A DNA stretch of 53,432 bases, counting the filler, from Bipalium vagum (Eukaryota), in the NCBI GenBank assembly GCA_037834085.1. It is 3 parts of 3 records of this genome, joined end to end, with 100 filler letters (N's around TTAATTAATTAA, not from the genome) between each part and the next. Parts side by side here need not be neighbours in the genome. Positions count along the whole stretch, not along the records: positions 1 to 18,704 come from JBBMKC010022057.1; 2 more parts are not named here. The stretch is one strand, 5' to 3'. Position numbers and translations under genes: made by a program. Below the pieces are notes generated by a model. It was not told where the DNA came from. It did not search any database and worked only from the letters and a program-made list of their open reading frames with translations. Positions 1 to 39,927 of this stretch are shown here, in pieces; position 1 is the first letter of the stretch, and the number at the start of each line of letters is the position of its first letter.

Positions 1-2820
1 TTTCGTAAACATCTTTTTAAAATGAATCAGTGGTTACGATTCTAAATGTAATCGAGTTTTGAACGACTTGGAAAATTAAAAAACATCTGAAAATGATTCA
101 AAAACGAAAATTTCTTGTATTCTGAACAAATTTATCCATGCAGACTGTCATTTAGCAGATCTAGTGTTTCACTGTTAAAAACTTCACGTGGTATTTTTTA
201 TTATGTGTATTGATATACCATCAATTTTTTCAACAGATATTCTGTGTGGATTCTTTTTCAGAGACGCCAACAAACCGAAATGTTCATTCGATTTATCAGA
301 TTTTTTATGAAGTTTTAAAATAATCAATAAAATTGTGTTGATATCGACTATTTATAAACTTTCATCGGTTAAATATATCTAAATCTGTTTTCATTTTTTA
401 ATCATGATATTTTTTATATACTTTGTACACTTAGAATCAGTGTATTTTATATTTATCATAATGGTGGTGCGATAATAAACTTAAACTTTCATTAGTAATC
501 TCATTTTAATTTTTTCCTTTATTATATTTTAAAACTTAAATTGGTGATTTCAAAATTGAAAATTAATTTTTTATTACTAGTTAAATGGATTCTTTGATAC
601 CTTAACAAATTTTTTTGAAGATAATAAGAAAGAGGTTTAAACCTTTATCAGATTTAAATGACCTGAACAATTATACTAATATTAGTCCAGCTGAGAACAA
701 TTTTATATTATCAAAGAATACTAATATTTTTTGGATGTGTCAGATAATTCTGCTAACTGTGATAATGTTCTAGAATTTACAAAAGCAGTACTAGATTCTA
801 TAAATAATACTGACACCAAGGATGAAAATTTAGTTAAAGATTCCGGTGTTATAAGTGAACAGGAAATTAAAATTAATTCACTAATTTATGGGAAAAAATT
901 TCTAAAATATTTAAATAGCTACATAACAATCTATTTAGAATAGATAAACAAAAATGACCCTGAGGGTATGAGAACGGAATTTTAACCCGCACAATTTAAT
1001 TCCCGTTTCTCTTTTTATTTTTAATCTTCCAGCTTCTTCTTTATATGTTTATTTCTTAAAATATACAGTCTGGTGAACTAGTCACCAGATTCGATATTTT
1101 ATCTCAGGGTGTCTACACTCTTCCTAGTGTAGATTGATATCTTCTTTAAATAATTAAATTTGACATTTTGATTTTTAGATTTGGAGTCGTTTTAAACCTT
1201 TGTAAATTTTATTATAATCAACAAAATTTTTTTTAAAAGAGTTTCCTTTATTATTTTGTGATTGTTACATTACATCCTCATTCAAATAGTAGCCAGGTAA
1301 AAGATACAAATAAGAAATTTAATCAACTCCACATTCAAAAACCTTAACAACACCATATTTACAAAAACATTCAAGAAAAATTTTTAAAAATAAAAATTAG
1401 GATTATTTTTTTGAAGGTGGAATGTAAAGTTTTCTTTTATAAGGGTTAAAATATATAATATTTTCTTGTTGTATAATCTTAACTTTGTTTCTATTTTTTG
1501 TTAAAAAGATTTTAAATTTTTCCGGTAGCTTATTTAATTAAAAATGTGTTACTTGTAATGCACTTTTAAAAGAATTGAATATTCGATTTCTTAAGTAAAA
1601 TACCGCCACTGTAATTTGCACAAAATGATGGATATAAGTACCTTGATTCAGTCTTTATTTAACTATATGAGAAAATATGTTTAAAAACATGTTTCCAATC
1701 AAAATTCTAAAAGCATAATTTTTGAAAAACTAGAAAAACCGATTTTTTCAGAAACATCACTTTTAAAATTATTTAAAATACAAGAATACAAGACAAAAAC
1801 ATCAGTAAAACATCTTTTATTTACATTTCAAATGACCAAAAACATTTAAAGAACAGTCAACCTCATGATTTTACTTTCTTTGCTCCAATTCGTAGGATTT
1901 TAGGAAAGTTTTAATTTATTAAACTAAATTTCACAACTTTCTCTAAATATTTTTAAAAGGATTAAATTGAAAAAATTAAAAACTTGAGATTATATTTTGT
2001 ATTATTTGTTTCTATGTTTATTATATATAATATCACGATTTCGTGGTTTAACCTGGTAGAATTATCGCTCAATGTGTGTTTATCGTTACGATATGGTTAA
2101 GAGATTTCAAAGTAAAGTTAATGGTGTTTTGAAAAAAAAATTTTACCGGTTCACAATACATAGCAATTGGCCAATTTTTACTCTCGCTTCTTGCATTTTT
2201 AAATACTTTTTCACCCAATTTTGTTTGTCTCGCGTTATAATCGCGTATCTACGGTATGGGTTTCATCCTGTCAAAATTGTTGTAATCAATAAAAAATGAA
2301 AGGAAAAAATTTAGAATATAGATTGATTTGAAGCAAATGAAGGAAGTAATAACCGATAGACTTTACAAATTTTGAAAATCATTAACAAAAACCAATTCTG
2401 GATATTGTTATCAATCCTTAAGGAAATCAAGTACTTTATTATCAATTATTAAAGTTACAATTGAAATCTACCAACTATCAAAATCACACATTTCAAGCAA
2501 CAATACTTGTCTTATTAAAAGTAATTTTTTTCGAAGACATAAAATAGAATTTTTAATTTTCATCTTGAAATTAAAATCAATTATTAATATTAATTAATCT
2601 GATTATTTTAAAAATCATATTTTGAATATTCAAACACGGTTACATTTATCTAATAAAAAATTAACTAAACAGAAAACTTAATCACAAAAATTTATTATCA
2701 GTCAAAAATTTGAAATTAAATTGGACAATTATTTTACGTTTATTGCCACAAGAGTCTTATTTTTCTTAAAATATTAAGTCAAACACAATGTTTACTAAAA
2801 ATAATAATATCAACAATTTG

Positions 2821-3564
2821 TTACAATGCAGTTCCTCTTTCTAGATTCTCTTGCAACTCTGCTGTAAATTCCCCATAATACTTGGCTAGCTGATCATTAA
2901 ATTTCTTATTTTTCTCATTTACATAAGTAACAGCAGCATCGGGATCAAATCGTTTTCTACGATGTTTAGCAGTCTGCTTCTTATCTATTTGTTGCTTAAT
3001 ATCTTCAGCAAGAGCATCAATGTCGGCTTTGTTATCCTTTTTTTGATTACACAGCAATTCAAAGCCTTCTATTTGAGATAATTTCATTCTAAGACAGACA
3101 TAAATTGGCTTCATGATAGAAATTATATTTACCTGTCTTCTTTTTCTTTTGAATATGAAATCATATCAGGAACCAGATTTCGTGATAATTTAACGTATTT
3201 TTTGTACGTTGCATCTGCAAAATCAACTGGATTTTCACTATCAATTTTCTTTTTCCGTGATTTTTTAACAATATAATCAGCAATATTGGCTTGAACATCA
3301 AGATTTTTTATGCGATTTGGATCAATCCCTTCTTTTTTACATTTTTCCTTAAAATTTTCTTCGTCTTCTTGCCATTGTAATCTTCTACGTTTGTTTTCCC
3401 AATTAGGAGGCAGACTTTTACGCTTTTGCTCTTCAGCAGATGCTAAGTGATTTAATTTACGAGCTTCATTCTATAAAAGATAAAATAATTAAGCAAACAT
3501 ATACTTTCATTACAGCTCGTAATTCTAATTGTCGAAGTTTCTCAAGTTTCTCAGGTATATTCAT
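2821..3564 (-). CDS. SYF2: Pre-mRNA splicing factor SYF2 (NTC/Prp19 complex), 3 exons, ~218 aa, complete
   Basis: Exons 3564-3514, 3470-3133 and 3088-2821 are joined by GT-AG introns of 43 and 44 nt and stay in frame. The product reads MNIPEKLEKLRQLELRA/NEARKLNHL...LPPNWENKRRRLQW...RRKRFDPDAAVTYVNEKNKKFNDQLAKYYGEFTAELQENLERGTAL, with the characteristic SYF2 C-terminus. Confidence 0.96.
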
Positions 3565-4135
3565 AAACAATAAAGATACTTAGTATTTTGGATATTCAAA
3601 CAAAAATAGTATTTAATTTTAGAAATAAGGAATGTAGGCAAAATATGATTATAATTAAATGTCCTCAAATTAATTTTGAATTAATTTTGTTATTAAAAAT
3701 AAATTTTAATAAACAATATCAATAATGGTTTTACTATCTTTTAACTTGGTTTTGAGTAATCTTAATGAATAATTGTTACAAAAATAAAATGTTATATATG
3801 ATACATCATGAATTGTTTATTAGCATGTAGTTTACCGAAGTGATTGGGAATTTTAGAAGGGTGGCTGTTGATTACTTGTTATTGTGGAACTGATTTTTGA
3901 ATTTCTGATAATAATGAATTTTATCTTGAACTACTTAATTTGATATGATTTGAATAAACTGTTTCTTTTCTTATCTTTTTGAGTCTGATATTTGTATTCA
4001 TATTTCCATTTCCATTTCATCTCTTTTTTGAAGGATGTCGGGTCTCACTTCTCTCAGAAGCAAGATCCGACATCACACGTTTCGTGTCAAATAATCATCT
4101 CACCTTTTTATATTAGAAATTTAATATGATAAATA

Positions 4136-5200
4136 TTAGGTTGAAGCATAAGTTCGTCGTTTTTTAATCATTTATTAATAATATTTAAGTAAAAATAAAG
4201 AAATTTATTTCATGATAAACAAAAAAATCAATCAGTTACATATTCCCCACTATTATTTACAAAGTTTTCCCATCGTTGTACCAATTTGTTGATCCCGTTT
4301 TGCAAAATTGTGCTGGTCTGAATCAAAATAATTCTCAAGCCAATTCTTCAGATCCTCATCATTGTTGAATGTTTTGTCGCGAATTTGGTTAGAAAGCGAA
4401 AGAAAAAAAGAAATCGGACGGAGCCAGGTCCGGACTGTATGGAGATTGAGCCAAGACTACCCAACGTAGTTCCTGGATAGTCGTTTTTGTAAGCTGTGCT
4501 GTGTGTAGTCGGGTGCTGTCGTGCTAGAAAATTACTGACCCTTGGTGAATCAGGTGGGTTCTCTTGAAGAACTTGGTTCAAGTGAGGCAATTGGTCTACG
4601 TATAATTACTGATTGATTGTGTGATTATGTGTTAGCATTTCAAAAAAAGGGAGCCTTTCAGTCCCATCACAGACTGATAATTTCCTGGCAAACATGACGC
4701 GTTGCAGGTTCGCTCCTGCTTAACCATTGTTTCCTTTTCGGTGATTTACACATAGACACCACTTCTCACCTCCAGTGACAATGCGATGGAGAAGTATTGA
4801 ATTATAACTATGAGTTGCTCTATGACGCTCAAGCAAATCTGTCGCGATTGTAAAGCGTTAATGTTTTCTGCTTTCTTTCAACTCATGAAGTGTCCACACT
4901 CTCATTTTTGACCTTTGCCCATTGATTTTAAGTGACGATAGACTGTTATTTAGTCGCATTTCCTTGAACGACCAGCTCACACGTGCTTTGTCATCCATTG
5001 CTTTTTAAAAGTGCGTTTAAATGCTCCTCATTGAAGTCAGTAGGTCGCCCAAAACTTATTTCGTCTTGTAGTGAGAATTTATCACTCTTAAATTTTTTAA
5101 AACCATTTCTGAGCTGTCCGCACGCTTATGACACCTTTTCCATATACATCACTTGTGCAGCTTTAGAACCACAATTGTAGACAAAAATATGTTCTACCTG
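4136..5200 (-). mobile_element. Degenerate mariner (DD34D) transposon
   Basis: TA + TTAGGTTGAAGCATAAG mariner-type TIR at 4134. Minus-strand remnants include HRIVTGGEKWCLYVNHRK and a YSPDLAPSDF-like motif, with many frameshifts. The second TIR was not identified. Confidence 0.85.
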
Positions 5201-6619
5201 AAATAATTTAAACCCCATTAAGCTCTTAAGAACATAAAATTATAAAGCCCATTAAGACAAAAGAAATGAGACAATATATTTTACTCAAAAGAAATTTATT
5301 ATTTCTATTATTTGTTATACTTACATAAACATTATTATATTTATATTAATAATAATATAATATCTATATTACAAGAGTAAAAACCAAGTGAAAACCAAAG
5401 TAGTAAAGGAAATCAGATTTTGAATATAGGACCCTAAAAATCAAATTTACACATATTTTTGTTCGGAAACTATTTTTAAAAATTTTTTATTCACTCATCT
5501 AAAAAACTGTTTCCTTTCCTGAAAATCTAATTTTCTATACTGCATTAAAATATTTTAAAATATTTTTATTTTTACATACAGTAGTAATATTGTAGAGACT
5601 GCCAACATTCTGAGTCAAACTTGAGTTCAATTCAAATAAATGAAAATCCTTGAAATTTGTTTTGATATTAGTGATTTTTGTGTTATGTTATCAAATTGAC
5701 TTTTATAATAATTCTTTTGGTTATAATGTTAAATCGTCCTTGATAAAATAAATAAATATAAATATATAAATTAATTATAAAGCAATGTAAGTAATATAGT
5801 ATGAAAAGTAATTATATCATAATTTTTCTGAAAACACAAAGAGTACCATATTTAAAAGCATTAGACCTTAAACAGTTCAGCCTAAAAAAATAGAAAAAAA
5901 ACAAAAAATTAAAAATATAAAATATATAAAATTTAATAAATATAAAAATTTATGAAATATCCAATATAAAAAATATACAAAATGTATAAAATTTGCTAAA
6001 TATTTAAATTACAGTAAAACCCCATAAAAGAAATCGTACAAAAAAAAATATTCGAAAATTTTATGAATTCTTATATATACTAAACAACTTTGTACGATAT
6101 ACTGCCTAAAAATTTTTTATGCGGTGGATAGGGAGGGTGGAAAGCTTTCAATTAAATAAAATAATTAAATTAGACCTAAAGAAATTTTAAAAATATTTAA
6201 TTTTTCATTGTACATATATATGGAGAAGTTTTCAAATTATACGTTAAATAGTTTGCTGCTACTCGTAGTAATCCAAAACGCGCATATTATTTTGAATAAA
6301 ATTCTGAAATAGGTTTTGTTTGAAAACATTGTGAACATGTTTTAAAATTTACAGCTTGAAAACTTTCAGTAATGAAATTTGGATTAGCGATTTCTTAAAA
6401 ATAAAATTTGATTTTTTAATCACTTTTAAAAATATTGTTATATAAATTCTGAAATCATTCTAAAAGACTATCAAAACTTAAATTTTTGTTTAATATAAAT
6501 ATTTTTATTTTTTATATCATTTTTAATGCCTAAAAATCAGATTAATTTTAATTAACACTCATATTGATAAGTTATTACATTTCCATTTTCTAAATATTTA
6601 ATCTGTCTTTTATTAAAAT

Positions 6620-7810
6620 CAAAATCATACATTTTTATTTCATCTATTGTTTATCCTATTAAAATGTTTATAATTATCTCCTGTTAATTTAAATTTCATA
6701 CTTTCAATGATTTCAAATTTTTGTAATATTAGTTTCTTATATTCACACTCCCATATTTATATAAATTCTAATCTTAAATTTGTATCACTAAAATATTTAT
6801 AATATTATTTTTTTTCTAAAATTAGGTTATTTAAAAATTTCATTGTTTTATTTTCTTTTTTACAAACTTTATCTTTATTATAACATTTTAAACAACCATG
6901 AAAATAACAACCATTAAATTCATAAATATAATAAGTCTTAGTTTGTTGATCATAGAAAAATTCATCAGTTTGATATCTTTTGTTATTTGCATTAATAGAT
7001 TTTTCTCTTCCTCTTTTTGCTTGTTAAATATTTATATTATCAATCTTACTTAAAAATTCTAACCAATGAATACATTTATAAGAATAAATATCTTCAAAAT
7101 TATTTAATCTCGATATTCCAATTTCTTCACCATTTATCATAAACAAATATTTTTGTACAAATTTGTGCGATTGTCATATATTGAAAAGTATCCATATTTA
7201 GAGGCTTTGCCTCACAAGACCTTCGTTCTAATTTTTGGGTTTCTGATATATTTATATTTTAAAAATAAGTCTCTATAAATTAAACAACCTTTTGTTAAGA
7301 TCATAACATTTGTTAAACAATAATAAAACATTTGAATTTGAAAATTAAAAACTTCATTATTTATTATTTTTTCATCATGCCATTGTTTTAATAATTTTCT
7401 TCTTTTTCATTCATAATTATAACCATAATATTCAAAATCTGGATATTTTCCTATATACTTTTGATTTCTTGTTGTATTGAAATAATGTTGAAAATATCAT
7501 TTATAATCATTTAATATCATTTTAAACCAAGTGTTGCAAAAAAAGCTTTTAATGGACATAAAGTAAAATTTATTGAATCTACAAATCTTATATTAAAATT
7601 TTTTATTTGCATGTATGTGATTTTACTTCCTGAGCAAATTTTTTCAGCTGTTAATTTATGTTGAATTAACCAACATAATACTGGATGGTTGTCATATCCT
7701 TTTGCATAATGTGCTATGAAAGTATATTGTTTGAAATCTTTACAAATAAAGAATTTTAAAAATGTATCAACTAAAGAAGTTGAGTTTTCAATTATTATTT
7801 CTTTTAACAT
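6620..7810 (-). pseudogene. Polinton/Maverick (adintovirus-like) protein-primed family B DNA polymerase relic
   Basis: Exonuclease-region motifs FIAHYAKGYD, IRFVDSINF..CPLKAF and HYFNT..NQKYIGKYP. An inserted nuclease-like block IYEFNGCYFHGCLKCY...IWECEY follows, then the start of polymerase motif A (EIKMYDF). Stops and frameshifts throughout. Confidence 0.85.
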
Positions 7811-8020
7811 CCGTGCTTATTTGCCTGCCGTGTCTTCCTTGATCTTAAAGGTGTTCCTAGCCTTGATTAAATTTTTTGAACCATTTTTGGGGTCATACGA
7901 ATTGAAACACATTTCTCACCCTCCAACTCACATATCTTTTCGGTCGCTTGTGTTTCCTTGACATTTAGCTTCCAATAATGTCTTAACAGTACTATAATTT
8001 CCAATTTATCCGTATTTCTT
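7811..8020 (-). mobile_element. Mariner transposase N-terminal (HTH) fragment abutting the PolB relic
   Basis: Minus strand reads DKLEIIVLLRHYWKLNVKETQATEKICELEGEKCVSIR../KWFKKFNQG*..DQGRHGR. Confidence 0.7.
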
Positions 8021-9332
8021 CTCAAAAAATAAAAGCAGTATATTTACAATAATTTAATAAATTTTAATTTACCGTCTGATAAAGGAAGTTTTTATCTTCA
8101 AAATGATATATAATTGTATAGATTTAAATATTTACATCAATTAAAAAATTAATTTGAAATAGTAAAACAAAAATTACAAGACTTATCGAATAGAATTTCA
8201 GAAGTTATATTCTATATTTTTTTTTGAATTAAAACACTTACACTTACTATGGAAGAATTATTAGTTTAATTATTGAAAAAGACAAAACATTACAGGAATG
8301 TTAAATTAAGTTTTATTAATGGAAAAATAAGTAGACATCACTCTTAAAGGAGCAGAAATGTTTACTGTTCAATAAAGGCAAAAAATGATAAATATAATTA
8401 CATTTAAGAAAGTTGAGTTAATGAATTAATTTTCTTTTTAAAATTTATAATTATCTTCTATTTTAATTGTATTTCATTTTTAGTTTTTTTAATATAAAAT
8501 TGATAAATTTCATAATAATTCAATTTACAATATTCTAATTATCAAGATTTAATGAAAAATATCTTACAATTATAGGAGATTTCTGAAAATAGAAAAAACA
8601 ATAATTTAATAAATTAGAATCTCGAAATAAATGTTTAAATTCTTTTTGTTCCCTTAAAGCTATGCTTAAGCCAAAATATAAAGTTTAACATTTGATTTTC
8701 TTGTTTTCAAATTCTATGAAAATCATTATATTTTATTATATTTTCAAGAATATTTCTATAAATTATATTGTAGGGTTGACAACATTTACATTATTTATTT
8801 TTGATTAAAAATCTTCATCTTGTTTTATTTCAAAACATTTATAACATTCTTTATTATATATATATTAATTTTTATTACCCTTATATTTTTTAAAATTATT
8901 TTTAACCGTTTTTTATTGTTGTTTTCGTTAATTAACAAATATATTTTCTATCATTTATTGAAAAGTTAAATTTCTATGCTTATCTTGCTATGAAAAATTT
9001 ATCTAAGTTTTATTCGAACATTTCATTTTTACAAAAGATATATTTCTAGTTTAGAACTAATATACATAAGAACTAATATAACTTAGACATACTGTTTTAA
9101 TATCTATTTGATCTCATTTAAAAATTCCATTATCAATTAACTTGTTTAAATTATTAATTTACTTAGTTTCTGTAACCTTGTTACTTTAATCGGTATGTTC
9201 TAAATTCAAATTGGTTGAAATTTATTATTTATTGTAATATATTATTTCATATATTTGGCCTCTTAATGACGTATGTCTTAATCTAGGATTTAATTTGATC
9301 GAAATTTATTTAATTTTATAAAATTTTTAACA

Positions 9333-12300
9333 ATGGAATTTAAATGTGGTAATATAATATTCTCATCAAATTTTGATTCCGGAAATTTATTAAACGTTGA
9401 GCGAGTTAATAGTGCGGATGAAAATATTCAAAATCAGTCCTCAGATTCAAATAAGTCTGATTATGAATTCAATATTTGGACAAAATCTGATTGTTATGGA
9501 ACTGAATTTGAAAATGGAAATCGAACTTGGTTCCATTTTTCCGTTAAAGGTTATTTACCAGGTAGAATTATAAAAATAACAATTAAAAACCTAAACCGAC
9601 AACAAAGATTATATTCACAAGGATATTGTCCATTATACAAAACTGAAACTCCTAATTGTGATACTAGCAAGTTAATTAATTTTTTTATTCTAATGTTAAA
9701 TATTATACTTACATATTTATAAATAATTTTATTTTTAATATATACATGAAATGTCCTAATGTCATCAGTCGTAAGAGCGACCAATCAAGTTTTCATGAAC
9801 AATAATTTATCATATATTTGAAATTAAATAATTTTGAGCATTAAACTAATATTACAATTTTTTGTTGAACACATTTGAAAAATTATCTTACCAATGATTA
9901 TTAAATTAAAATAATTATTTTGAAGATTACTCTTCTCTAGTTGTTAATTCAAATTTCTTAGTAAAATTTATGGATTGTAAATAAATTTTTTCGGATTTAT
10001 TCTACTTTATTAAAATTGTTAGCGTCAGTTTCTATGTAAATTATAAAAAAATTGTTATTAAATTTATAAAATAATTCTGAATTACTTTGAAAATAACAAT
10101 TTTAGCATTATTTATTTGGCTATTATCTTGGCTATTCGACCTTGTAACCCAATCTCTCTCAGTAGGCTTTTGATAGGTGATGACGAGAAAATTATATTAT
10201 TTGCCTTTTCAATTGTATAGAGAGTGCATCCGCCGATGCATACTGATTCTTTTTGACGCATCTCTGAATAATGCGATCTTCCCTGACAGTTATTATTTTT
10301 CGCCGACCACTCGGAGGTAGAGTGGAAATGCTTATTCACGATGGATTGAACAGTTGACTTGGAACATTATAACATGGTGGAGATCTGACCAAAACGTTCC
10401 ATCATTTCTTAAGTTTAGAATTACATTTCTGAAATCAACTGAATGTTCTTCTACGCCACATTATAATGTTTTTATTGCTGAAAGAAATCGGAGTTCATTC
10501 AGATTACATGTTTTTATGTAAAATTAATAATTAATTAATAATAACTATTTTAAATACATGTACAGGGTGTCCCATAAGTCCCTGTGGAAAGTTAACTTAA
10601 ATATCTTTCATTAAATTCAATCGATTGAAATTTGTATTTATATAATATTAAAGTATGTAAGTCTAAGTTTTGTTTTAATATTCTAAAATTACATTTAGCA
10701 AAAAATACTTGATTTGAAGTTAAGAATCAAAATTGTACTTTTAATGGCTAAATTCAACTCAATTTGTGTTGTTAAACGGAAATTAAATGCCAAATTTTGG
10801 AAAACCTCGCCAACTGAAAAGGCTATAAGAGAAACCTTTCATCGTTTTTGTGAGATTGGCTCGGTGGAAGAAGAACGTTCTGGAAGACCAAGGCTGATCA
10901 CTGAAAATGAAGTTCAGAACATGAGTGAAGTTATTGAAAGTGATCCACAATGCAGTGTTCGATCTGTTGCAACCACCTTTCCATTTCGCGAACAACAACC
11001 CATCGAATTATGAGAGAATAGCTATCATTGAAACCCTTTAAGGTCCATTTCACGCAGGAATTACATGAAGAGGATTTGCAAGCCAAAGTTGAGATGTGCA
11101 AAACCCTGGTCCCAATGTTAGAAAATGTGGATATTCAGGAAAATATTTTCTTTTCAGGTGAAGAAACGTTTTACCTAAAAGGGTTAGTAAATAAACATAA
11201 CGTCAGATATAGTCAGAAATTAATCCACATGTTACTTTTAAAACTGCTAGAAAATCCCAGAAGGTAAATGTTTGGTGTGCTTTGTCAAAAAATAAAATTA
11301 TCGGTCCGTATTTCTTTGAAATGAGACTGTTAATGGCCAAAATTATCTATCAATGTTTCAATACTATTTTATGAAGTGAGGAAAATCTACAAAGTACGAT
11401 CTTCGGTATTTCAGCAAGATGGAGCTCCTGCGCATTTCCAGAAAATGTACGACGGTATCTTGACTCTCATTTTTCAAACAGGTGGGTTGGAAGAGATGGT
11501 TCAGTTCGACGGGCTCCACGTTCACCAGATTTAACTCCTTTTGACTTCTATTTATGGAACCATTTAAAGAATAAGATATACAAACCTGAAATCAAAAATA
11601 TTGACTATTTGAAAACAAAAATCAGCGAAGAAATAAAAAGTGTTACCACAGAAACTTTAAATAGCGTATTTTTAAATATTGTAAAAAGGATGACTATGTA
11701 TATCAGTTAATGGTAGTCATTTCTAACAATTGTTGTAAATATTTTTATATGAAATAAAAATTAAAAGATTTTTCTTTAATTTTATAAAGCAAGCGATTAA
11801 ATATCTCAATCTGCTTAAGAAATATTTAAGTTGTTTTCCGCAGGGACTTCTGGGACACCCTGTAAATGGATCAATAAATATTATTAAAACAAAATTATAT
11901 GAGCAATACTGTTAGAATTCAAATATTTCCATAAATTTTATTTTGTTTTATAATTAAATTTTATGAACAGTTTTGTTAAATGCAAGGAGTTACATTAGTA
12001 CTGCGTGTAAATACTTTGTTTCATTTCATAAGTTTCTTTCTTTATTATACATCTAACTCTTATTATGAAAAAGTGATGATACAACTACTTTTTGCAGATA
12101 CTATAAAATTTCGCTTCCGTTATATACTGGTGGAAAAATCTTTTCTGGCACTTGTATTGGGATTAAATATTAAAAAATGTTGAAAGTTTTTAATATTTAT
12201 TATTTTTACATGCTTGACTGCCGTTTATTATACAGGGTGGACAAAAAGTAGCAAACCAAAACACAAATTTAGTTTGATAAATTAATAACAAAAAATATAT

Positions 12301-15300
12301 TATATTTGTTACTATTATAACTCGATACAGTAACGTGTATCGTAACTCCTCACGTTTACAATGTTGTGTTCGTTTCTCTCTATAAAACCTTATCTGCTGA
12401 ATCAAAACACCCACAATAATACTTTATCCGCCCCTGTGAATTGAATCAAAACTTCCACAATAAAATTTTATTGACAAAACACAATCACAATTAAATATAA
12501 TGATAACCACGAAAAGTCACTCGTTTAATCACGCTAATAAGTCCAATAACCGAAAATATCACCAAAATAAAATAAAAATGAACACAACTACTGTTATAAT
12601 GAAAGAAATGATCAAAGAAAAGAGATTTGGGGAAGTAACACAAAAACCAAAGAAAAATAAACGGTCTCAACAAGAGCGAAAAGAGGTGCCCGGGTCGCTC
12701 TCTAGGCTCTTCTCAGATCGCCTAGGGATACCCAAGCTCGCTGTGTTCCCTTGTTAAATCCCTCTGCATCGTCATATTCACTAGGAGGAAAACCTGATAT
12801 AATTGAGTTGTCTCGTAGTTCGTCCTGAATTATCGCTAACAATCTTTGGGTAAATTGGTGAGACAGGATGGATTATTAACTCCCACGATGGAGTATAATT
12901 AGCCATTTTCGATATTATCTTAATACTGCTATTATTATTCTAATTACTTTTATTATCTGCCCAATTAAAGTTACTTTATTTCCGTTATTGTTATTCCTCT
13001 ATTATTATTATTATAAACTTATTATTATTATCATTAATTATTATTAATTATCATTAATATTATTAATTATCATTAATATTATTAATTATCATTAATATTA
13101 TTAATTATCATTAATATTATAACCCAACATATTTATAAAATTGAATAAACATATGTTTATAAATTTTATAAAGCTTTTATAGAACCAGTCGTCACTTTTT
13201 CCTTCAATATTGTTACAAGATTCAAGAGTATCATCTGTTATTTTTGTGGAATACACCATTTTTTTCATGTGGGGCCAAAATTATAATTCCATTGTAGTCA
13301 AATCTGGTGATCAGAAGGCCCATTCTACTGTGCCTCGTCGTCCAATCCAATTTTCACAATTTTCATATAGCCAATTACGCACGATTGTCGCATAATGCGG
13401 TGGAGGACCATCCTACATGAACCTTGATGGCTTACCATCACAAATAAGATTCAATTGCGGCATCAAATCGTTTTGAAGCATGTTTAGGTATACACGTGAT
13501 TTCTCCATTGTCTGCATCATACCATCAATTTTGAACTTGAGTGTTCCTTACTACCAACTGACCAATGCGGATTTTCGATTGAATAATAGCGACAGTTTTT
13601 CTTGTTGACTTCATCGTTCACAAAGAAATTAGCTCCCTAAACACGTGGTTTTCTAAAAATTTGGAGTTCCTATTTTGAGGCAATCTAATCATCTCCAGCC
13701 GTCGACCAGGGTCATCTTAGTACAGGTTGAACAAATACTCAAGTCTATATGCATGGAAACTTTCAGATTTGATAATCTACCAAATTGGCTTCTTGGAACA
13801 ACAAGCTCCAATGAAGATCGCCGTACGGATTTCATTGGACTTTACTGAATTTTTTGAATGACATGCATCCGCATTTCTTTAAGAATTCGAAGCCGTCCTC
13901 TCTTCGGCTTGTCTAGGACATTGCCAGTTTCCCGAAATTTAGTCATCAGTCGTTAAATGTAATTAACAATAAATTTAATCATACATCGTCAAATTCTAAT
14001 AATTTGATGCACTTAAACATAAATTTTCTTATTATGTTTTGGTGCGCTATTTTTTATCCACCCTGTATATATCTACATTTTGAATATTGGTTTTAATAAT
14101 ATATAAAGTTGTAATCTTTTAAATTTAATTATTTCCAATTGAAAAAATCTTTTTGAAACTTGTTAGTTTAAAATTAATCTGAGATACCGGGATTCGAACC
14201 CGGGACCTTCACATGCGCGTGAACTGCTCTGACCGCTGAGCTACATCCCCGAATAATTTTCAATGTATCTCACAACAATAATGAAACATTTATTGGTTAA
14301 CATAAATTTTCATTTATTAATATTATTTACATTGTGTAATAGTAATTTATGTACTCTATATTTTAAATCCATATGGAAATCAATAATAATTACTTGCTTG
14401 TTATTTACCTCAAGAGCAAAATTGTGTAATATTTTTTTCATAATTTTTAGATCTGAAGATTTTGGTAGCCATATCAGGACCTAGACTTTATGATAATTGA
14501 GATTCATAATAAGCACAGCAAAGTCTTCAAAAATGTTAATATATTTTACTATCTTGATTTTCTTCCAATAATTTCAAAACAATAAGATCGTTAGGTTTAG
14601 GATCTCCCACACCACACTATAATTCCTACATCTTCACAATGACTTTAGACTTGGAAATGCTTGATCTTTCTTAACATACAATATACAATGTTTCATAAGA
14701 ATCTTTAACACTATAATAATTAAATAATACCCGTTATCTAAACCGTCAAAACGGAATCATTTGTCATCCATAAATATTGTAGTACTCCAATTAATATTCT
14801 AAACAATCTATTTGGAAGATAATAGAATTTTTTCTGATTTATCAGAAAGCATAATTTTCTGTGACATTTCGATATAGCATATTATTCTTCAGAACCAATT
14901 CACAAACACACACACATATGTATTATACAAATAATTATTTAATGTTTGTAAATTGAGAAATTATATGTTAAAGAATTAATTTCTCTTAAAATTTTCTTTA
15001 TTTAATTTTGTAAATGATTATCATGTGGATGTAAAAACTTATTGATAGTTATCATTTAGATGGCTTCGCATTCGATCTCGACCAACTTGGGAAACTAATG
15101 ATAATAATTTTCAGTTAACTTTTGTTCATCGATTCTGTGAATATAAAAATTCAGTTACTTATTTTGCATTTTGCTATCCATGGTCTTATAAAGATTGTCA
15201 AAGACAATTAGAAGAATTAGATCATAAATTTAAGAACATTCAATCATACACCTGGGATAAACTTTCAAAGATGAACTCAAACACTATTTATTATCACAGA

Positions 15301-17016
15301 GAATTATTGACATATTCCCTTGAAAATCGCCGTATTGATTTATTAACAATTTCTGATTTAGAAGGATTACAAAAAGATCGGGAAGAAATTTTTGATGCAA
15401 AACTATTCCCTTTGTGTAAGTCTAGACCGTGGATATTTAAAAATAAAAAGGTTTGTCAAAATTTTGATATATTATTAAGTTAGAAATTTCGTAAATTTAT
15501 GAAATTGTGTTAAATTCTTCAATTTTAAAAATTTTATTAAAGCTTTTTTATTCAAAATATTTTAAAACATGATAAACTTTGAATAAGAAATAAAGTTTTA
15601 TTTAAATACAGTGGTTGGCCAAATAATTAGGGACACTTTAGAATTTAGTTAATTTATGTTTAAGTTTTTAAAAGATAAATCGAGTTTGGTATGACTCTTA
15701 TTTAAAATCGTGCATTAGTAGAACGCCAAATCACACTGATGCTCTTATAACATCAAAGGGAGGTGTTACAAATTTCTAGTTAAATCAATGAATTTATTGT
15801 TTATTGTATTTTTATTAATAAATATTTCTGTTTGAACTTTTTTTATTGTTTTCCTTATCATAACATTAGCTGAACATCTTTATAAAAAATAAGTACTAAC
15901 ATATAACCTAAGATAACTTAAATTTCATTTTATCAAAAAGTACAGTGTCACTAATATAACCAGCCACTGTATAATAGGTTATAAAAAATTTTCGTTATTT
16001 GACTATGTCATGGTTTATGATATTAAATTTATTTAATAACAAATAAATTTTGAAAGATCTTTTTCTGCTTTAGTACAAGAAAGTTTTTGTCATTTCATTT
16101 TATTTAAATTTGACATCTTTAAAATTTAGTGTCAAGTTGATAACATACATCATCTTCTCCACTTCTTGTTATTTTATTTTATTCGAGGTAAGAAATATGT
16201 TTTTATCAAGAAAATTGGTACAAAAAAATCTGAAATTTTACTTTTAACCTTTATGGTACTCCAATTATCGGTCCAACATCCAATTTCGACTATAAAAATT
16301 GATCGCAAGAAAGATAGCGGTCGTCACAAATGAATAGATGAAAAGCAATCCATTAGTATTCTTCTCATTCTAAATTTAAATGCGTTTAATCAAAAACTAA
16401 GTGTCTTTGTGCTATATAGACTGAAAGAAAAAAAATCAAAGGAAGTCGTTTAAATCTTGCCAGAAACCGAGAATACGCAGCCATGAGGAACGATTTCTTC
16501 AATGAATCATCACGAGAGATGAAGAATGGCGTTTGTCTACAAACTTGAAGCACAGGTAAGAGTGGTTGTCTGTCGATTACAAAAAATTTCCATCCCATGA
16601 AAATCGTGATTTCTGTTTGGTCTCATACATTGAGAAATTATTTATTATTTATTGATCTTAATAATACTTCTTGCAGATGTATATTTTTCAAAATGAGTGT
16701 ATATATTAAATCATATAATATAATTATAATACAATCTAATATTACTTAAGTATAATTTATAAATGTTTTCAGGAAAAATAATTAAAATATCTAAAAAAAT
16801 ATTTATTACTAATCTATAAAAAATGTAATTTATATAGGTCTTTGTTGTTACATCTCGTGTTCACCCAGGTGAGACTCCTGCAAGTTACGTCTTTAACGGA
16901 TTACTTGAATTTATATTGCGTGAAGATGATCCTAGATCCATTCAATTAAGAAGGACATTTGTTTTTAAGTTAATTCCATTACTCAATCCTGATGGAGTTT
17001 GTCTTGGACATTACAG
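9333..17016 (+). CDS. AGBL5: Cytosolic carboxypeptidase 5 (tubulin deglutamylase, M14 family), 5' partial: 3 exons seen
   Basis: Exons 9333-9670, 15060-15450 and 16838-17016 have GT-AG boundaries in matching phase. Motifs: [65 protein letters not shown] (HxxE zinc ligands) and [15 protein letters not shown]. Later exons were not found before the linker at 18704. Confidence 0.92.
10120..10510 (-). mobile_element. Tc1-like transposase N-terminal fragment (AGBL5 intron 1)
   Basis: Minus strand reads [32 protein letters not shown].../[16 protein letters not shown]. Confidence 0.65.
10563..11862 (+). mobile_element. Full-length degenerate rosa/DD41D-type Tc1/mariner element
   Basis: Imperfect TIRs CAGGGTGTCCCATAAGTCCCTGTGGAAA ... 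TTTCCGCAGGGACTTCTGGGACACCCTG flanked by TA. Transposase remnants [28 protein letters not shown] and [10 protein letters not shown]...[20 protein letters not shown], with several frameshifts. Confidence 0.92.
12307..13129 (-). mobile_element. Putative solo LTR (823 bp) nested in a DNA transposon
   Basis: Termini TGTT...AACA with a 4-bp direct repeat TATT on both sides (12303-12306, 13130-13133). Non-coding, with AATAAA inside the palindrome CAATAAAATTTTATTG. Homologous to 50478-50945 and to the reverse complement of ~51400-51574. Strand inferred from base skew and hairpin. Confidence 0.72.
13030..13120. repeat. 19-bp AT-rich minisatellite (TATTATTAATTATCATTAA) x ~4.5
   Basis: Directly visible tandem copies near the right end of the solo LTR. 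Confidence 0.85.
14180..14250 (-). tRNA. tRNA-Ala-like element (pseudo-tRNA or tRNA-derived SINE head)
   Basis: GGGGATGTAGCTCAGCGGTCAGAGCAGTTCACGCGCATGTGAAGGTCCCGGGTTCGAATCCCGGTATCTCA. A and B boxes, D and T stems and G3:U70 are intact. There is a 1-72 mismatch and a 6-nt anticodon loop containing CGC. Confidence 0.7.
15609..15969 (+). mobile_element. Tc1-like internal-deletion derivative (361 bp)
   Basis: Imperfect TIRs CAGTGGTTGGCCAAATAATTAGGGACAC ... GTGTCACTAATATAACCAGCCACTG flanked by TA. It retains a transposase C-terminus-like [12 protein letters not shown]. Confidence 0.75.
16200..16700 (+). mobile_element. Highly decayed mariner fragment
   Basis: Remnants [11 protein letters not shown] and [13 protein letters not shown]. 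Confidence 0.55.
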
Positions 17017-18703: not shown

Positions 18704-18804
18704 ANNNNNNNNNNNNNNNNNNNNNNNNNNNNNNNNNNNNNNNNNNNNTTAATTAATTAANNNNNNNNNNNNNNNNNNNNNNNNNNNNNNNNNNNNNNNN
18801 NNNN
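18704..18804. other. Artificial scaffold linker N45-TTAATTAATTAA-N44
   Basis: A six-frame-stop 12-mer centred in an N run. The same construct occurs at 36201-36300. Confidence 0.95.
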
Positions 18805-24993: not shown

Positions 24994-26636
24994 TATTAGG
25001 GGATACAATTTACAACAATCAATAAAGCAATAATGTGTATTCATATCACAATGTACAATAGTACATGCAAGATAACAACGTTAACACTCTATTAAATCGC
25101 AAAAGTCAAAATAGCAATGATAGAAACCAACAAATTATCAAATAGATACGATGATAAAATGATACTGATCACCAATCAAACATTCGTACAATCAGTCAAA
25201 CAATTAAATATTAACAAAACACAACAATCAAATGTAATAATAATAATCAAAAATCAATTAATCAATAATTAAATGTTAAATAAATAAAAGAAAAACATGT
25301 TATCAATAAAAAACATAATGAAAGAAAAATACCTTACGAGATCCAAGAACTATCAGCTTGCGGTTGCTCAGAGATAGCCTTCTGGTGGGGAACCCAAACA
25401 CAATCACCAGGAAAATTTCCTAATATACCTGTAACAATAACGTTATCTTCTTTTCGGTAACAATTATAACTGTCTTCTATTCTTCTACCCCTAACTTTGA
25501 AAATCTTTCTCTTTAAATATTATTTTCCTGTGGTTCTTGTATGTGAGGATTGAGCTTGAATTATCTTGATAATTCTTTTAATTATTTTTAAGACCCTTTG
25601 AATTTCTTTAGCCTATTATTAACAACCATTATTGTCTTTGAAAAACTCTTCCAAAAATTATATTATTATTATGATTTTTTATTATGATTTTAAATACGGT
25701 ATTTAATATAAATATAATGTTATTTCTATTAAAATTAAAGGTCGTACGGATATTTATTGTGCATTAATACCCATAAAATATTTTTAATTAAGATAATTTA
25801 AATATTTTCTTGATAAGAATTCTACAAAAACACTTATAAATAAACGCATTGAAAATTAAAGTATTATTAACACCAAAAATTTATTTCATAACTGTTAATT
25901 TTCCATAAAAAAATTATCTTGAAAATATTTACATATCCTCATACGGATAATTATTGGATTATATGTACATATATGTATATATATAATATCCCGTTTATAT
26001 ATATTGTGTATTAATAATATAGAAAGTCAATATTTTCATACATTTCCAAATCATGGATTCAAAGACCAAGAGAAATTGTAATATTTTTGTAAATTACTAA
26101 TTATTATGAAATGTTATCAACCTCTTAGAAAAAAATCTCTATTGTTTAATAAATTAATTCTAAAATTTTTATTATTACATGATATAATAAGCGGTAAAAT
26201 ATCTAATAAAAATGAAAGTGAAAAGAAAACATCGATTATTATTGATGCACTAAATATCAGGAGAAAAAAATCACTGTATCTGTGAGCTAGGTTTAATTAG
26301 GTTTATAGGGAAAAGTATACCTTTCACACTAATCCACTTAAGTAAATTTAGGGAACACAAATATTTCTCCACGAAATATAACTCATTTGATTGGTTGATT
26401 GATATTCTAAGAAAACTTCTGTCGTGTACCGAAAAATTATCCCTAAATTCAATTATATTATTGTTGAGTTATAATCTTCTCTTTCTTTTTGTCGTTTATC
26501 TCAAAACGGGATTTGTGAATTTTTTTCTGTTGGTTTTTGGTTTTAAGGCTTTGGTTTATTTATTTGTGTTCGGTAGCAATTTTCTCAAAACAAAAATTCA
26601 AATAAAAATCCAGTGGATTGCGAAAAATTTGGGAGG

Positions 26637-29600
26637 ATGATGAATGAAAATGGGAAAAATATAACCGGTGTGTTTCCGTCCCAAATTTTCCAATTGCAGC
26701 GAGAATTTTCCACAAACACCAATTCCCATAAATCAATAAAAGCGTGTAATAGAGACATGGCTAAAAAAGATGAAAAGCCAACTGATGAAGAATGGAATAG
26801 CTGCACCAAAAATGTCGGTCTTGAAACACACTTATCAAGTGACACGGGAAAATTTAATGTTAATCGTTGTTCAAATGATAAAAGAGATGCCATGTCTGAC
26901 TCCACTAAATTAGGTAACTTAACAAGAAAAAATCAAGTAATCAATTTGCCTGAAGAATACAAAGAGATTGACAGTTGCACCAATTGTTGTGATGAAGATG
27001 TGCACAATGTGTTGGAAAATAAAAATATTGTAACAACGAAAACGATTCGTCGAACAAAACGGATAATAAGGACAAGATTTATTGCCAAAAGTAAAAGTAT
27101 GGATTCTGAAACTCTGAAAAACAGCTTAGAAATAGGCAATTTTGACAATATTGAAACTGCCAATCCCGAAATCACCATGGAAACGGTTACCAGTGAAATT
27201 ACTACTTTGACCAAACCCGACCCTTTGGACAGCACCAAAACCGTCACGGAGATCATTTACGATTCCAGTGAAAATACTAAATCATTGTTAACCGATTGTG
27301 ATATACCGTTGAAATTCAATATTGAATCAGATGAACAAAGTACTATCAAAACTGAACCCGTTAATACTGAAGAACCACAGATAGATCAGAGTGAACACTG
27401 TGAAATGGATCAGTCCAACCATACTTCGGAAGAAACAGTTCCCAGTGTAAATAAAATCTATTTAAATGATAACAGTCTTGATTTAGAATCTCCAATTCCT
27501 TCATCTGCTGGATTTCAAACCATGTACGACACTAATCCCATTGAAGCATTGCAAGCAAATGATGAAGATAACAATGAAAAACGGGCTTCAAGTTTGAACA
27601 GTGAAAATAGCAATGATACGAAAAGTTTATCAAAGTCAACCTCTGGAACTATTTTGAAATCAATGTCCAGTTCTCCTTCCATTGCAGCTCAATTCAATAT
27701 AATAGCAAAATCTCGCAAAACCACTGTACCCAGATGTCGAAGAACCGATCCTCCCAATAAGCCAACTGTTCGATACATGACACAGCCTGTGGTTTCTGAT
27801 AAACCTGGCAGTGCTGAGTGCCTTAGAGACAGACCTTATGACAATCTAGGGGATTCTGATTGCACGAACAGTGTACAAGATATCACCATGATTCCCCCTG
27901 ATGAAAAATCAACCATTTCTGATGATACGACGTCAATAGGATCACATAATTTGAGTAAATACTCTAGGTCTTTGTCAGGAACAACACGTATCGGTAAAGA
28001 ACCTATTGATGGAATTGAAAGTACTTCATCAGCTCGTAATTATTCAACAAATATTAAAGAAAATATTTCTGAAATAGACAATAAGTCTGAAAAAAGTTAT
28101 GGAAGTGAAGAATTGTCGTGTAGTCCAGACTATAATATGGAACCGGTATTTTATGAAGAAGCAAAAAGTCCGCTAATAAAGCCTTTACGTCGTAGTGAAC
28201 GACATTTATCAGGTGGGTCAGGAAATTATACCAATAGTAGGGCATATCAAACCAGTTTACCAAATACTCTTCGAAGACCCAACCCACAGCATATTCGAAT
28301 TCACAGTGATGAAATAAAAGCTCCATCAGCTGCCATATCTGATTTAACCACCGATTACTTAAACAGAAAATGTTTTCAAATAGATCGAAAGGATACAGAT
28401 AATACATTTCCTACTGGTCCTATTAGTTCAAGATACTCGCCGTTCAGACATGGAATCGACTCCACAGCTGGTTTGGATAATGTAGTTCTTAAATCTCCAA
28501 GTGCCCAAGCTTTAATGAGGAACAGTTTGAACAGAAATCGATCAACAGCGTCAGTAGTGATAAATAATTCAAATAACCTGAAACAAAACCAACGTTCCAT
28601 TCATAGTAGTGAACGGACATTTGCAGGTTTTTTATACTTAATAAATCATTCTAAATACTTATTTAAATTTTTTATGTCCTTAATTACTGTTATAAAACTT
28701 TAAGAGTTTAATGTATGTTATTTATTATTTATTATTTTAATTTTAATATTACTTTTTTTTATTTTAATATTAATATTAATATTTTTATAATTATTATTAT
28801 TTTTTAATTATTATTATTATAACTACTGATAAAAGATAAGAGACCTCAAAAAAATTTCATCTAAATTCTTTAAATTCCTTTGTAAAAAGAATTAAACCAG
28901 TTTTTTGTTAAATTATTTACCATTTCTTTTCTAAATCTTAGGATCTTTAACAGATACATATTTTATTTTGTAAGATGGACAAACCAAAAAAGTTTTCAAA
29001 CCATCTTGGTGGGATGGGAGTGAATTTCTAACAATGATTGCTAAAGTCATGGAAAAAAAATATAATCAGTTGGGGCAATGTCTGCTGAATAAGACTGATT
29101 TTATGTTTTCCCCAATAAGTAATATGTGGGCTAATAATGTGATATGATTTTCATTTTACTTTATTCCACTCTGCATACGGACTTTCTTTTAATAATTGTC
29201 CATAGAAATAAGTATTAATGTTTTTCTTGGTGGTAAGACCTAACATTAAACAAATTCCTTTTACTCAATTAAATAAAATATGATTTTCATGGAGAAATCA
29301 TTTTTATGTTTAATCTTAATCGTTTGTACGATTTACAGGACTCTTTCATTTTCCAAGAGATCATACGAAAGTCATTATTTATTTATTGTATTAAAATAAT
29401 TCATTCATGAAAGAATAAATAAACAAATGAAATTATCTTTTAATTATTAAGAAGCATTTCTTTTTTTATTTTCTTATCTCATATGGTCAGATAAAATCAG
29501 TCTACCTTGTCATTTCATGTCCCTTTGAAAATTCTTTTTATGTGATGAACGATGTTACAAACCTTCTTTGTCAAATTTTTTTCGTTACGCACTAAGAACG

Positions 29601-32600
29601 TTGTTCGTCTACCATGCTGAAATGATCCGTTCTGAACATACAAATTTCAATCTATTGTGATTGTCAACATTAAAGAATGGATTATTGTTTAAGGTTTCAT
29701 TAAAATAATTCCCACTGAATACCATATCAGAAAACAGTTTTAAATTTGATACTAAATTGGACTATTAAAATAATTTTTTATTTATGATATAATTCTAAAT
29801 CCAATCAGACCATTACTGATTATCTCCGAGATCAATTGATCGGAGACCCTGATTTAATTGACCATATAGTTATAGAACTTTTAGTATAAAATGTTAGTGA
29901 AGAATATCTCATATGTGATACAATAGGGATCTTCATATAATAAAACTTTATAAGTTTTATGAATTTTTTATACCTACAATTAAGATATTTTAAAATTCTG
30001 TTTCAAGAATATTAGAAAGGAATTTTAAATTATTAATTAAATAAAAATTTTATTTGAAACATTAATTTAATTTCTAATATTTTTTATTTATCTTCTCTAA
30101 TTTTCTAATTTATTTATTTATATTTATTCAGGAAATATATAAATTAAGTGATTTTTACAGATATTTATTGTTTGTTTAAAACGTTTATTTAGGCAATGAA
30201 AATCATGAAACTAATCGTAAGAACAATAATTATATAATTCTAATAAATAATTAAAATTATATTATAATATCTCATAATAATTTGCGTGAAGTTTTATTTA
30301 TTTAATTTCTTTTTAACTTAATTTTTCAATTTTTTAAAAATTGACATTTAGGAAAATAATATTGATTTTTCGAATATTGATTTTTGTGATCTCTGTATTT
30401 TTGAATTCTAAATTCTGAAAATGAATCTTGTATGAAATATATTTTCGAATGAATAATTTTTATGCTTGAAAATATTGTCGAAAAACTATTTTTCTTTGAG
30501 TTAATTAACAATTTTTCTAGAGAAGGATTCCAATACAAATACAGAGGTTTGTGAAGGAAATAACTTAGAGGGGGGAGATACTGCACAAAATATTCCAGAC
30601 GAAATTATAATAGAAGAGGTAGACGATAGTGAAGCATTAGAGAAACAAAAAATGGTAATATTATTATGTTATGTAATTATATGATTATTTAACAATGTTA
30701 TTTCTAAAAATAAATCCTCAAAATCTGTTATTGTAAACGGAAACAAATTAAATGATTGTTACATAGAAAATCACCATTTTTATATTGATTTTCAAAAACC
30801 CTATATTTTTTCAAAAAAATAAGTTTGAATTCAAAATATACACGATTACAATTGACAATGTTTGACAAGGTTATTTATCTCATCACATCACTGTAATCAT
30901 TGTCTTTTTATGAAAATTTGATTTTGGCATTGTTTTCAGTGATTCATTTTTGTTTAACCATTACACAGATCTTTACGATTATCATTTAACATTCATTTTT
31001 CATCGCATGTAATGATTCACTATAAAATTTATTTCTTTGAATCAATGAAAAGCCTCTGAATTGTTTGAATTTCACGTAGTTCCTTTTCTTTCACCTACTT
31101 GAAAAAGTTACTGTGATTGCGTATAACTCTTCTGCCTTTTTTCTGAAAGTTATTTGCATATTTGATTTCACTAACTGCTTCAATTGATCACCATTCTTCT
31201 TAGATTCATTTCAATTATTATTTTGATTTCCATCACTCATCTCCTTTGGAAATTTGTTTGAATCAGGAACGAGTTTCAAATTCCGAAAATGAATGTTTTC
31301 CCCATGCTTTCTGATAATTCTTTGTCGATTCTGTTACATTATGGTTATGTTTAAATTCGTGAATTATAATGACCCCAATTTGCATGCTTAACCATTCTTT
31401 AACCTTAGCTCCTGATATTCATAAAATCTAAAAAGTATAAGTAGTTATAATTTTATTATAGATAATTTTAAAATCTTCCGTTTAATATACTAAAAAAACA
31501 ATTTAAACATTATTTTTCAAAAAAAAGTATTCAAAAATAGACATAAAAAATCGACCGTTTCATATGCAACAACCTAATATTTACTTTATACAATCAAAGA
31601 GAACTTGCACCGGTAAATTTATATCAAAATAAATTTTTGACAAATAATTTAAGTTTTTATTGGAAAGAAAAAATAATAAAAATATGTTTAATATTAAAGT
31701 TAGAAAAATAATATTTTAATTATTATTTAAAACAGAGTGTCATAGGCAGTTAATTAACATAATTTAATTTTGAGATTTCTATGAATTTATTATTTTAAAT
31801 TTTCTGGTTCTCTGATCTCACTCATAATTTCACATTAATTTTGCAATGAATCTGATATTAATACTGAAGAATTGATAATAATAAATGTGTGGTAATCGTT
31901 CAATAATGAAATGGTGTTTATTATTCCTTAAATTCCATAAAATAAATAATTAAAAATCCACATCAAATGCAATAAAATCAATCAACCGGTGTATTAACTC
32001 TTAATTTTGCCAATCAATGAATCTCATACAAATGGAATATAAACATGATTAGAAAAAAAAGAAAAAAGTGTATTATATTATATTATTGTATTATTAATAA
32101 AATGAAAATGCTGTCTAACCTCCTTATAGCGAACTGGTGGTTTACCTTAAATTTCTTATAATAAATTAAAATATTGACAAAAATTTCTTTAAATAATTTT
32201 AAGTATAAAAATATTCAATAAGTAAAGGAATTTTGGGTTTTTATATTTTTAAAATAAAGAAATTTTTTAAACATTGAATTATACTGATTTTTACTGAACT
32301 GGTGACGCTAATAATTCTTTAATATCAGTGGTCCCTATAAGAGGTTTCGTAGTAATTCAATTAAGGTCTCCTGAGAGTAAAAAAATATTTTTTATTTTAG
32401 TCATTAGTTAAGTAAAATGAATTGTTTATTTAAAAATTAAATTTNNNNNNNNNNNNNNNNNNNNNNNNNNNNNNNNNNNNNNNNNNNNNNNNNNNNNNNN
32501 NNNNNNNNNNNNNNNNNNNNNNNNNNNNNNNNNNNNNNNNNNNNNNNNNNNNNNNNNNNNNNNNNNNNNNNNNNNNNNNNNNNNNNNNNNNNNNNNNNNN

Positions 32601-36200: not shown

Positions 36201-36300
36201 NNNNNNNNNNNNNNNNNNNNNNNNNNNNNNNNNNNNNNNNNNNNTTAATTAATTAANNNNNNNNNNNNNNNNNNNNNNNNNNNNNNNNNNNNNNNNNNNN
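36201..36300. other. Artificial scaffold linker N44-TTAATTAATTAA-N44
   Basis: Exactly 100 nt, with a six-frame-stop core at 36245-36256. Confidence 0.95.
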
Positions 36301-39913: not shown

Positions 39914-39927
39914 TAATAAGTATCAGA

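Follow-up and report, generated by a model that had tools for sequence, protein, structure and literature searches.

The GC-rich island at positions 12662-12754 is, in the reading preferred here, the best-kept part of a high-copy repeat, likely a Gypsy-like solo LTR, and the GAGA-capped, GA-bulged hairpin predicted on its minus strand probably acts in cis as a signal where the R region begins. A probability of roughly 0.55 is given to this reading. Positions refer to the window, i.e. the whole stretch of 53,432 nt of Bipalium vagum DNA that was analyzed. The island (copy A) is the putative 5' part of R. As had been claimed in the initial annotation, the island recurs on the same strand at 50816-50909 (copy B, also seen in contigs, with its inner hairpin at 50857-50878). 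Of 94 aligned columns 77 were identical (blastn E 5.7e-21), and the differences amounted to 16 substitutions and one gap. The identity between A and B was 82% in the island, 65% in the terminal arm, 52% in the spacer and 49% in the 100 nt that flank the island opposite the spacer. A covariance model built from the two copies found no third island in the window, the best other match having 13 bits and an E value of 0.25. Scans of viral contigs for exact island motifs gave 0 matches, as did a scan for a 5S motif intended to supply a sequence for comparison. Scans of prokaryote genomes (0 and 2 matches) and metagenomes (8 matches) gave 10 loci, which were rejected as chance: the matches were 20-25 nt long, lay in DNA of 52-70% GC and showed no further likeness.

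Copy A of the island is located in element A, an 823-nt insertion on the minus strand (12307-13129) that is likely a solo LTR. The element starts with TGTTGGG and ends with AACA, and TATT stands on either side of it; the probability that two 4-mers drawn at random from the local sequence agree is 0.009. Family variants and abundance were taken from the contigs of one public run (X1; 1,835,864 contigs), which is possibly the source of the window itself and hence does not count as independent support. In one X1 contig 12294 and 13145 are linked by 22 letters, where an empty site would have 23, and this empty-site-like joint marks A as a discrete insertion. Read along the minus strand, the order is TGTTGGG, an AT-rich variable part, the GC island, a T-rich spacer, AATAAA, an arm of 165 nt and AACA. 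The AT-rich, poorly shared part with a short tandem repeat (12826-13129) would correspond to U3, the A-poor, T-rich spacer (12480-12655; 52% T and 19% A on the minus strand) to the rest of R and the terminal arm (12307-12465) to U5. The near-palindrome at 12459-12472 is the likely poly(A) signal, its minus-strand AATAAA (12472) being placed 165 nt before the element end. The arm contains 20-24% G and 33% T, and AATAAA is found upstream of the arm in A and B, but on both strands. Near-palindromes of this type (12459-12472, 50639-50652 and 51409-51422) read AATAAA on both strands in all three arms found, 165-174 nt from the element end. A short direct duplication was observed in the arm of A (12397-12460), with joints and loose ends of X1 contigs at its borders. 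Neither a primer-binding site nor a coding region could be linked to the repeat. When compared as inverted repeats, the ends of A matched at 11 of 40 letters, compared to 33 of 40 for the DNA transposon around A, which served as control. An LTR-like setting and a 5' position in a minus-strand transcript had been proposed from the outset. The anatomy of A and the LTR layout given in the available text of PMC3601003 support both, with the start site itself being a putative one.

Element A lies antisense between exons of a host gene for cytosolic carboxypeptidase-like protein 5 (9294-15483, plus strand), which was recognized by a protein match of an exon-like open reading frame and by its N-terminal domain at 9294-9719. 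A second open reading frame matched SYF2 (2821-3470, minus strand, protein match). The identity of both to named proteins, from scattered animals, was only 42-48%. The immediate host of A is a DNA transposon remnant at 12229-14069 with inverted ends at 12229-12266 and 14032-14069, the 33 identical letters of 40 mentioned above. We take it to be Tc1/mariner-like from the shape of its ends; two open reading frame pieces in it had no Pfam match. Further DNA transposon remnants, with inverted ends or transposase pieces, were seen at 10535-11887, 14482-14900, 38626-39915, 39867-41212 and 52921-53346, and Pfam matches were obtained for DDE_3 (52779-53108) and Transposase_1 (39003-39386). An open reading frame piece at 7517-7816 (minus strand) presumably recalls the protein-primed DNA polymerase B of Polinton-like elements, and a Pfam search of this piece gave no match. 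Exon-like pieces at 32793-34424 recall, by eye, what we assume to be a Rho exchange factor. A serine-rich reading frame of 708 residues was observed at 26577-28703. The window is AT-rich, with 18-40% GC per kb. It has gaps at 18705-18804, 32445-32600 and 36201-36300, two of which carry an artificial stop-codon linker, and the long-range order within the window is therefore uncertain. Among flatworms, solo LTRs with 4-nt duplications in a tapeworm and giant Gypsy elements in planarians are described in the accessible parts of PMC4558846 and PMC6431247.

Copy B of the island is followed on the minus strand by a spacer, AATAAA (50652) and a terminal arm (50478-50810). The arm ends with GTTACA at 50478, and the AATAAA is located 174 nt before this end. 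At 51175-51574, on the plus strand, a further arm (arm C) of the same wider family was found, in which the T-rich spacer, AATAAA (51409) and terminal arm are inverted and the island is missing. Arm C is closer to the arm of A (61%) than to that of B (53%). The presence of arm C makes the second end of B ambiguous. Head to head, B and the inverted arm C form a unit of 1,097 nt (50478-51574) with the ends TGTAACT and AGTTACA (7/7), in which 3 of 4 flank letters are duplicated; its ends, compared as inverted repeats, matched at 15 of 40 letters. This unit may consist of two LTR halves joined by a rearrangement, or it may be a real two-armed element. A second hairpin, not shared with A, lies just upstream of the island of B (50928-51027) and had a folding z-score of -3.9 on the plus strand. 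Stretch D (25050-25450) looks like a third element: after an A-rich tract with relatives in all three arms (A, B and C) comes a GC island of another kind (25331-25412). A search of stretch D for TGT and ACA ends with a duplication found none. The GC patches of arms C and D gave no convincing alignment to the island, with 8 to 168 of 300 shuffles aligning equally well.

The repeat was found to be very abundant in the contigs of run X1. With the island of B as bait, 810 contigs of at least 80% likeness were collected, and the summed depth within the island was 24,000-56,000, compared to 17-24 for long single pieces. A summed depth is no copy number, but the values suggest that the family has at least a thousand copies. 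When A was the bait, 873 contigs were collected; they covered the island at a depth of 950-2,300, part of the arm at 7,700-15,000 and the variable part at 0-378. Over 12346-12825 the depth was 664-14,985, against 0-378 over 12826-13113, so that R-U5 is better kept than U3. The initial annotation described the surroundings of the island as much more diverged. This holds between A and B, where they are 49-65% identical against 82% for the island, but with A as bait the arm at 12378-12473 draws far more contig depth than the island. The higher depth of the arm indicates that it is common to a wider group of elements, and arms C and D carry the arm without the island of A and B.

The inner hairpin of the minus strand (12703-12724) is predicted to consist of five pairs, the GA bulge, three pairs and the GAGA loop (12711-12714). 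It was the sole helix common to all minus-strand folds, with pair probabilities of 0.80-1.0 in both copies. The pairs proposed in the initial annotation were largely recovered: all 8 pairs of the inner hairpin form in both copies, with one double and one one-sided change between them, and the outer helix shows a G-C to G-U change; one outer pair, however, is broken in B. The outer helix is one of several possible folds: the mean pair probability of the whole model was 0.96 in A but 0.48 in B, and RNAalifold prefers three short hairpins. When the two minus strands were folded together by RNAalifold, the inner hairpin was kept and two flanking hairpins replaced the outer helix (-27.1 kcal/mol). 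The plus strands gave a long rod of slightly lower stability (-23.3 kcal/mol). Folding z-scores were -2.96 (minus) and -2.13 (plus) for A and -1.62 (minus) and -3.36 (plus) for B. The z-scores thus do not single out the minus strand, and those of B favour the plus strand. In all four structural models the minus strand of both copies retains more pairs than the mirror strand does; for the model of the initial annotation these were 16/16 (A) and 15/16 (B) pairs, as compared to 14 and 11 on the mirror strand. The inner hairpin is the only firm prediction from these folds, and the predicted outer helix is ambiguous.

Covariation between the copies had been the main argument for a selected RNA structure. 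It refers to a double change in the stem below the loop, U-A at 12717/12708 in A and C-G at 50871/50862 in B. In the family data this was not borne out. With B as bait, 17 variants reached at least 2% of depth, and neither 50862 nor 50871 was among them, which means that the U-A form of A is rare (<2%). In A-like contigs, counted over 40 of the 266 rows, the two partners change out of step: one differs from A in 372 out of 973 depth units and the other in 903 out of 1164 (38% vs 78%). Provided that the two shares can be compared, roughly four of every ten A-like copies would be mismatched at this pair on the minus strand. When the 16 substitutions are placed at random, one such double change turns up in 9-14% of the placements. 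The U-A pair of A is one real but isolated compensation, reached through a mismatch. The pair on the other side of the GA bulge (50861/50874) may be loose too: a 6.7% variant at 50861 pairs only with a minority letter at 50874, and loose contig ends before 50880 show the other letter beside the variant. The GA bulge, reported earlier as invariant, and the GAGA loop have the same letters in A and B, and the 17 variants include none of their positions. More generally, the unpaired parts of the island (bulge, loop and 3' end) show few variants in the X1 contigs.

Of the 7 variants at paired sites of the initially proposed model, 5 leave the pair intact on the minus strand, versus 1 on the mirror strand, and both minus-strand breaks are at 2%. 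For the minus strand, none of the four models has a variant above 3% of depth that breaks a pair against the partner letter of B. The 11 variants that are independent of the differences between A and B nevertheless break as many pairs as random placement does (P 0.44-0.97, four models, minus strand). A P value of 0.03, obtained with the long-rod model for all 17 variants when weighted by share, was not accepted, as the data had already been seen when this model was drawn and 6 of the 17 rows are differences between A and B. One-sided changes in the stems leave G-U pairs on the minus strand but mismatches on the plus strand, though this does not exceed chance. No significant excess of pair-preserving change was obtained across the copies. 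With two full copies and 17 unlinked, depth-weighted variants the power of this test is low, and selection on the structure is therefore neither proven nor excluded. A selected RNA hairpin stays the likeliest reading of the island, but the covariation offered for it fails in the family data, and a single compensatory pair between two repeat copies should be regarded with caution as weak evidence.

The islands match no RNA family of Rfam, in agreement with the initial annotation. Rfam gave nothing at cut-off for either island and nothing below E 0.1 around them, and the rows up to E 10 were at chance level. The likeness to TAR suggested earlier came down to an analogy: mir-TAR (RF00250), seen only in copy A and on the plus, i.e. 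opposite, strand, scored 15.9 bits where the cut-off is 40. The tick-borne flavivirus xrRNA (RF03536) scored 11.5 bits against a cut-off of 46.5 (E 7.8), in copy B only. A seeming resemblance to 5S rRNA and to the 7SL RNA S domain found no backing in Rfam and was dropped. The only match at cut-off in the whole window was away from the islands, a tRNA-like sequence at 14178-14251 (minus strand; 37.6 bits) with an irregular anticodon loop. A 117-nt unit around it (14161-14277) has TGT and ACA ends and no clear duplication.

It could be that the repeat is a solo LTR but that the island was kept as DNA, for example as a core promoter or factor sites at the U3-R border, with the hairpin as a by-product of a GC-rich, partly self-complementary stretch. 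The letters are conserved more than the pairs, as judged from the identical columns (77/94), the few variants in unpaired parts and the lack of an excess of pair-keeping variants, and both strands fold about equally well. However, a motif search found neither a TATA box nor a TCAKTY initiator in or just upstream of either island, and the G-U pairs left by one-sided stem changes occur on the minus strand and not on the plus strand, though within chance. Conservation as DNA is regarded as rather unlikely. A larger departure would be that the repeat is no LTR at all, but a non-autonomous DNA transposon with Gypsy-like ends of the Ginger2 type, or another element with inverted arms. The matching ends and inverted, related arms of the B plus C unit fit such an element, and Ginger2, which has TGTNR ends, shares with A the TGT ends and 4-nt AT-rich duplications. 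Ginger2 elements have terminal inverted repeats of 50-180 nt (Ginger about 40-270), according to the accessible text of PMC2836005. True inverted repeats are lacking in A (11/40) and in the B plus C unit (15/40) when held against the control (33/40), the duplication around B plus C is incomplete (3/4), and arm C is nearer to the arm of A than to that of B. A and Ginger2/Tdd thus agree in their ends and duplications and differ in the terminal inverted repeats, and a non-LTR origin is considered improbable.

The remaining explanations concern the RNA or the promoter that the island could encode. On the minus strand the island is followed by T-runs, and at its 3' end there is a loose resemblance, by eye, to the end of a 5S box C when held against the Ajax sequences in the available part of PMC10886601, as would suit a polymerase III promoter taken over from the gene for a small RNA (5S, tRNA or 7SL) such as those in Cassandra, Ajax and Helenus. 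The motif search, however, found no tRNA box A or box B in the islands, and there was no tRNA call. Neither island had a 5S box C within 3 mismatches or a box A within 1 mismatch. No 5S, tRNA or SRP match was obtained up to E 10, and the 823-nt LTR is far above the 323 nt of the longest Helenus LTR given in PMC10886601, as far as its available text goes. A polymerase III promoter is thus judged very improbable. A hammerhead core consists of the strands CUGANGA and GAAA in a three-way junction. The size and GC content of the island would suit an unrecognized self-cleaving ribozyme in a retrozyme-like element, a three-way junction with a 4-pair pseudoknot could be drawn by hand, and CUGAGAA loosely resembles one strand of the hammerhead core. 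No intact core was present, as CUGANGA is absent and no GAAA lies downstream on that strand; moreover, no Rfam ribozyme was found up to E 10, and the outer helices differ between copies A and B. The ribozyme idea of the initial annotation is hence left without support and appears extremely unlikely. Quite unlikely, too, is that the island forms a small folded RNA device in the LTR of an invertebrate Gypsy-like element, which would be either a TAR-like switch read by a protein of the element or host, or a new self-cleaving or nuclease-blocking fold with a three-way junction and a pseudoknot to the invariant GCUC just downstream. If true, this group would gain its first named element of the kind.

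The best reading of the hairpin, by analogy, would be an R-region stem-loop like those of retroviral LTRs, selection on its structure being unproven. Given a Gypsy-like origin of the repeat and a transcript in the direction of the minus strand, both of which we infer from the layout of A, transcription would start just upstream of the island, and the 5' end of the RNA would fold into the hairpin. Since it belongs to R, the hairpin would be copied a second time at the 3' end. It could aid transcription, RNA stability or Gag binding, as in retroviruses or Ty1. Copies A and B are likely passive remnants, and any constraint would have acted while master copies replicated. An R-region hairpin is the expected kind of feature in such a repeat, and the family is probably one more LTR family with a hairpin. 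A high-copy family with diverged subfamilies would be a good testing ground for a TAR-like signal in invertebrate Gypsy elements.

Animal Metaviridae LTRs have TGTTRNR and YNYAACA ends, AATAAA, a conserved R-U5 and a variable U3, and the residual conservation of long R regions in these LTRs is tied to stem-loops, according to the accessible text of PMC3601003. Element A resembles the solo LTRs of Metaviridae (Ty3/Gypsy) in its TGTTRNR start, TG and CA ends, AATAAA followed by the arm, conserved R-U5, variable U3 and 4-nt duplication. It differs in that the 3' end GTAACA fits YNYAACA in the last six letters only and is one letter off, and in that AATAAA is read on both strands. With no TATA box found and no coding region or primer-binding site linked to the repeat, no clade can be named. 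The literature search for stem-loop signals in animal Gypsy LTRs returned only an HIV match and no described case; it covered sources other than most subscription journals and Repbase, and the LTR family may already be catalogued. The conserved GC-rich core in a variable LTR is also seen in the TRIMp3 elements Helenus, Ajax and Cassandra, and animal Helenus elements have 4-nt duplications (PMC10886601, available part). Unlike in these elements, the island is without tRNA or 5S boxes, and the LTR is much longer.

Stem-loops at the start of R are known from retroviruses and yeast Ty elements, as described in the available parts of PMC2664473 and PMC6844567. Ty1 SL1 (PAL1-PAL2) and Ty3 PAL6 (PMC6844567 and PMC11381356, accessible text) are similar to the island in that a structured RNA 5' end would serve as a cis signal. 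Unlike these dimerization sites, the GAGA loop of the island is not self-complementary. The lone 6-nt palindrome of copy A, CCCGGG, lies downstream of the hairpin and is interrupted in B and by a variant at 39% of depth. For these reasons a role in dimerization is less likely. Compared to TAR, which has a UG-rich crown, the island hairpin has a GNRA loop, and no partner protein is known for it. A stem-loop just after the start site is a common trait of retroviral LTRs. Like HIV-1 TAR and the stem-loops of MLV R and HML given in the accessible part of PMC2664473, the island has a predicted bulged stem-loop in what is putatively the 5' part of R, with an A-poor spacer and AATAAA downstream of it, and it would act in a similar way.
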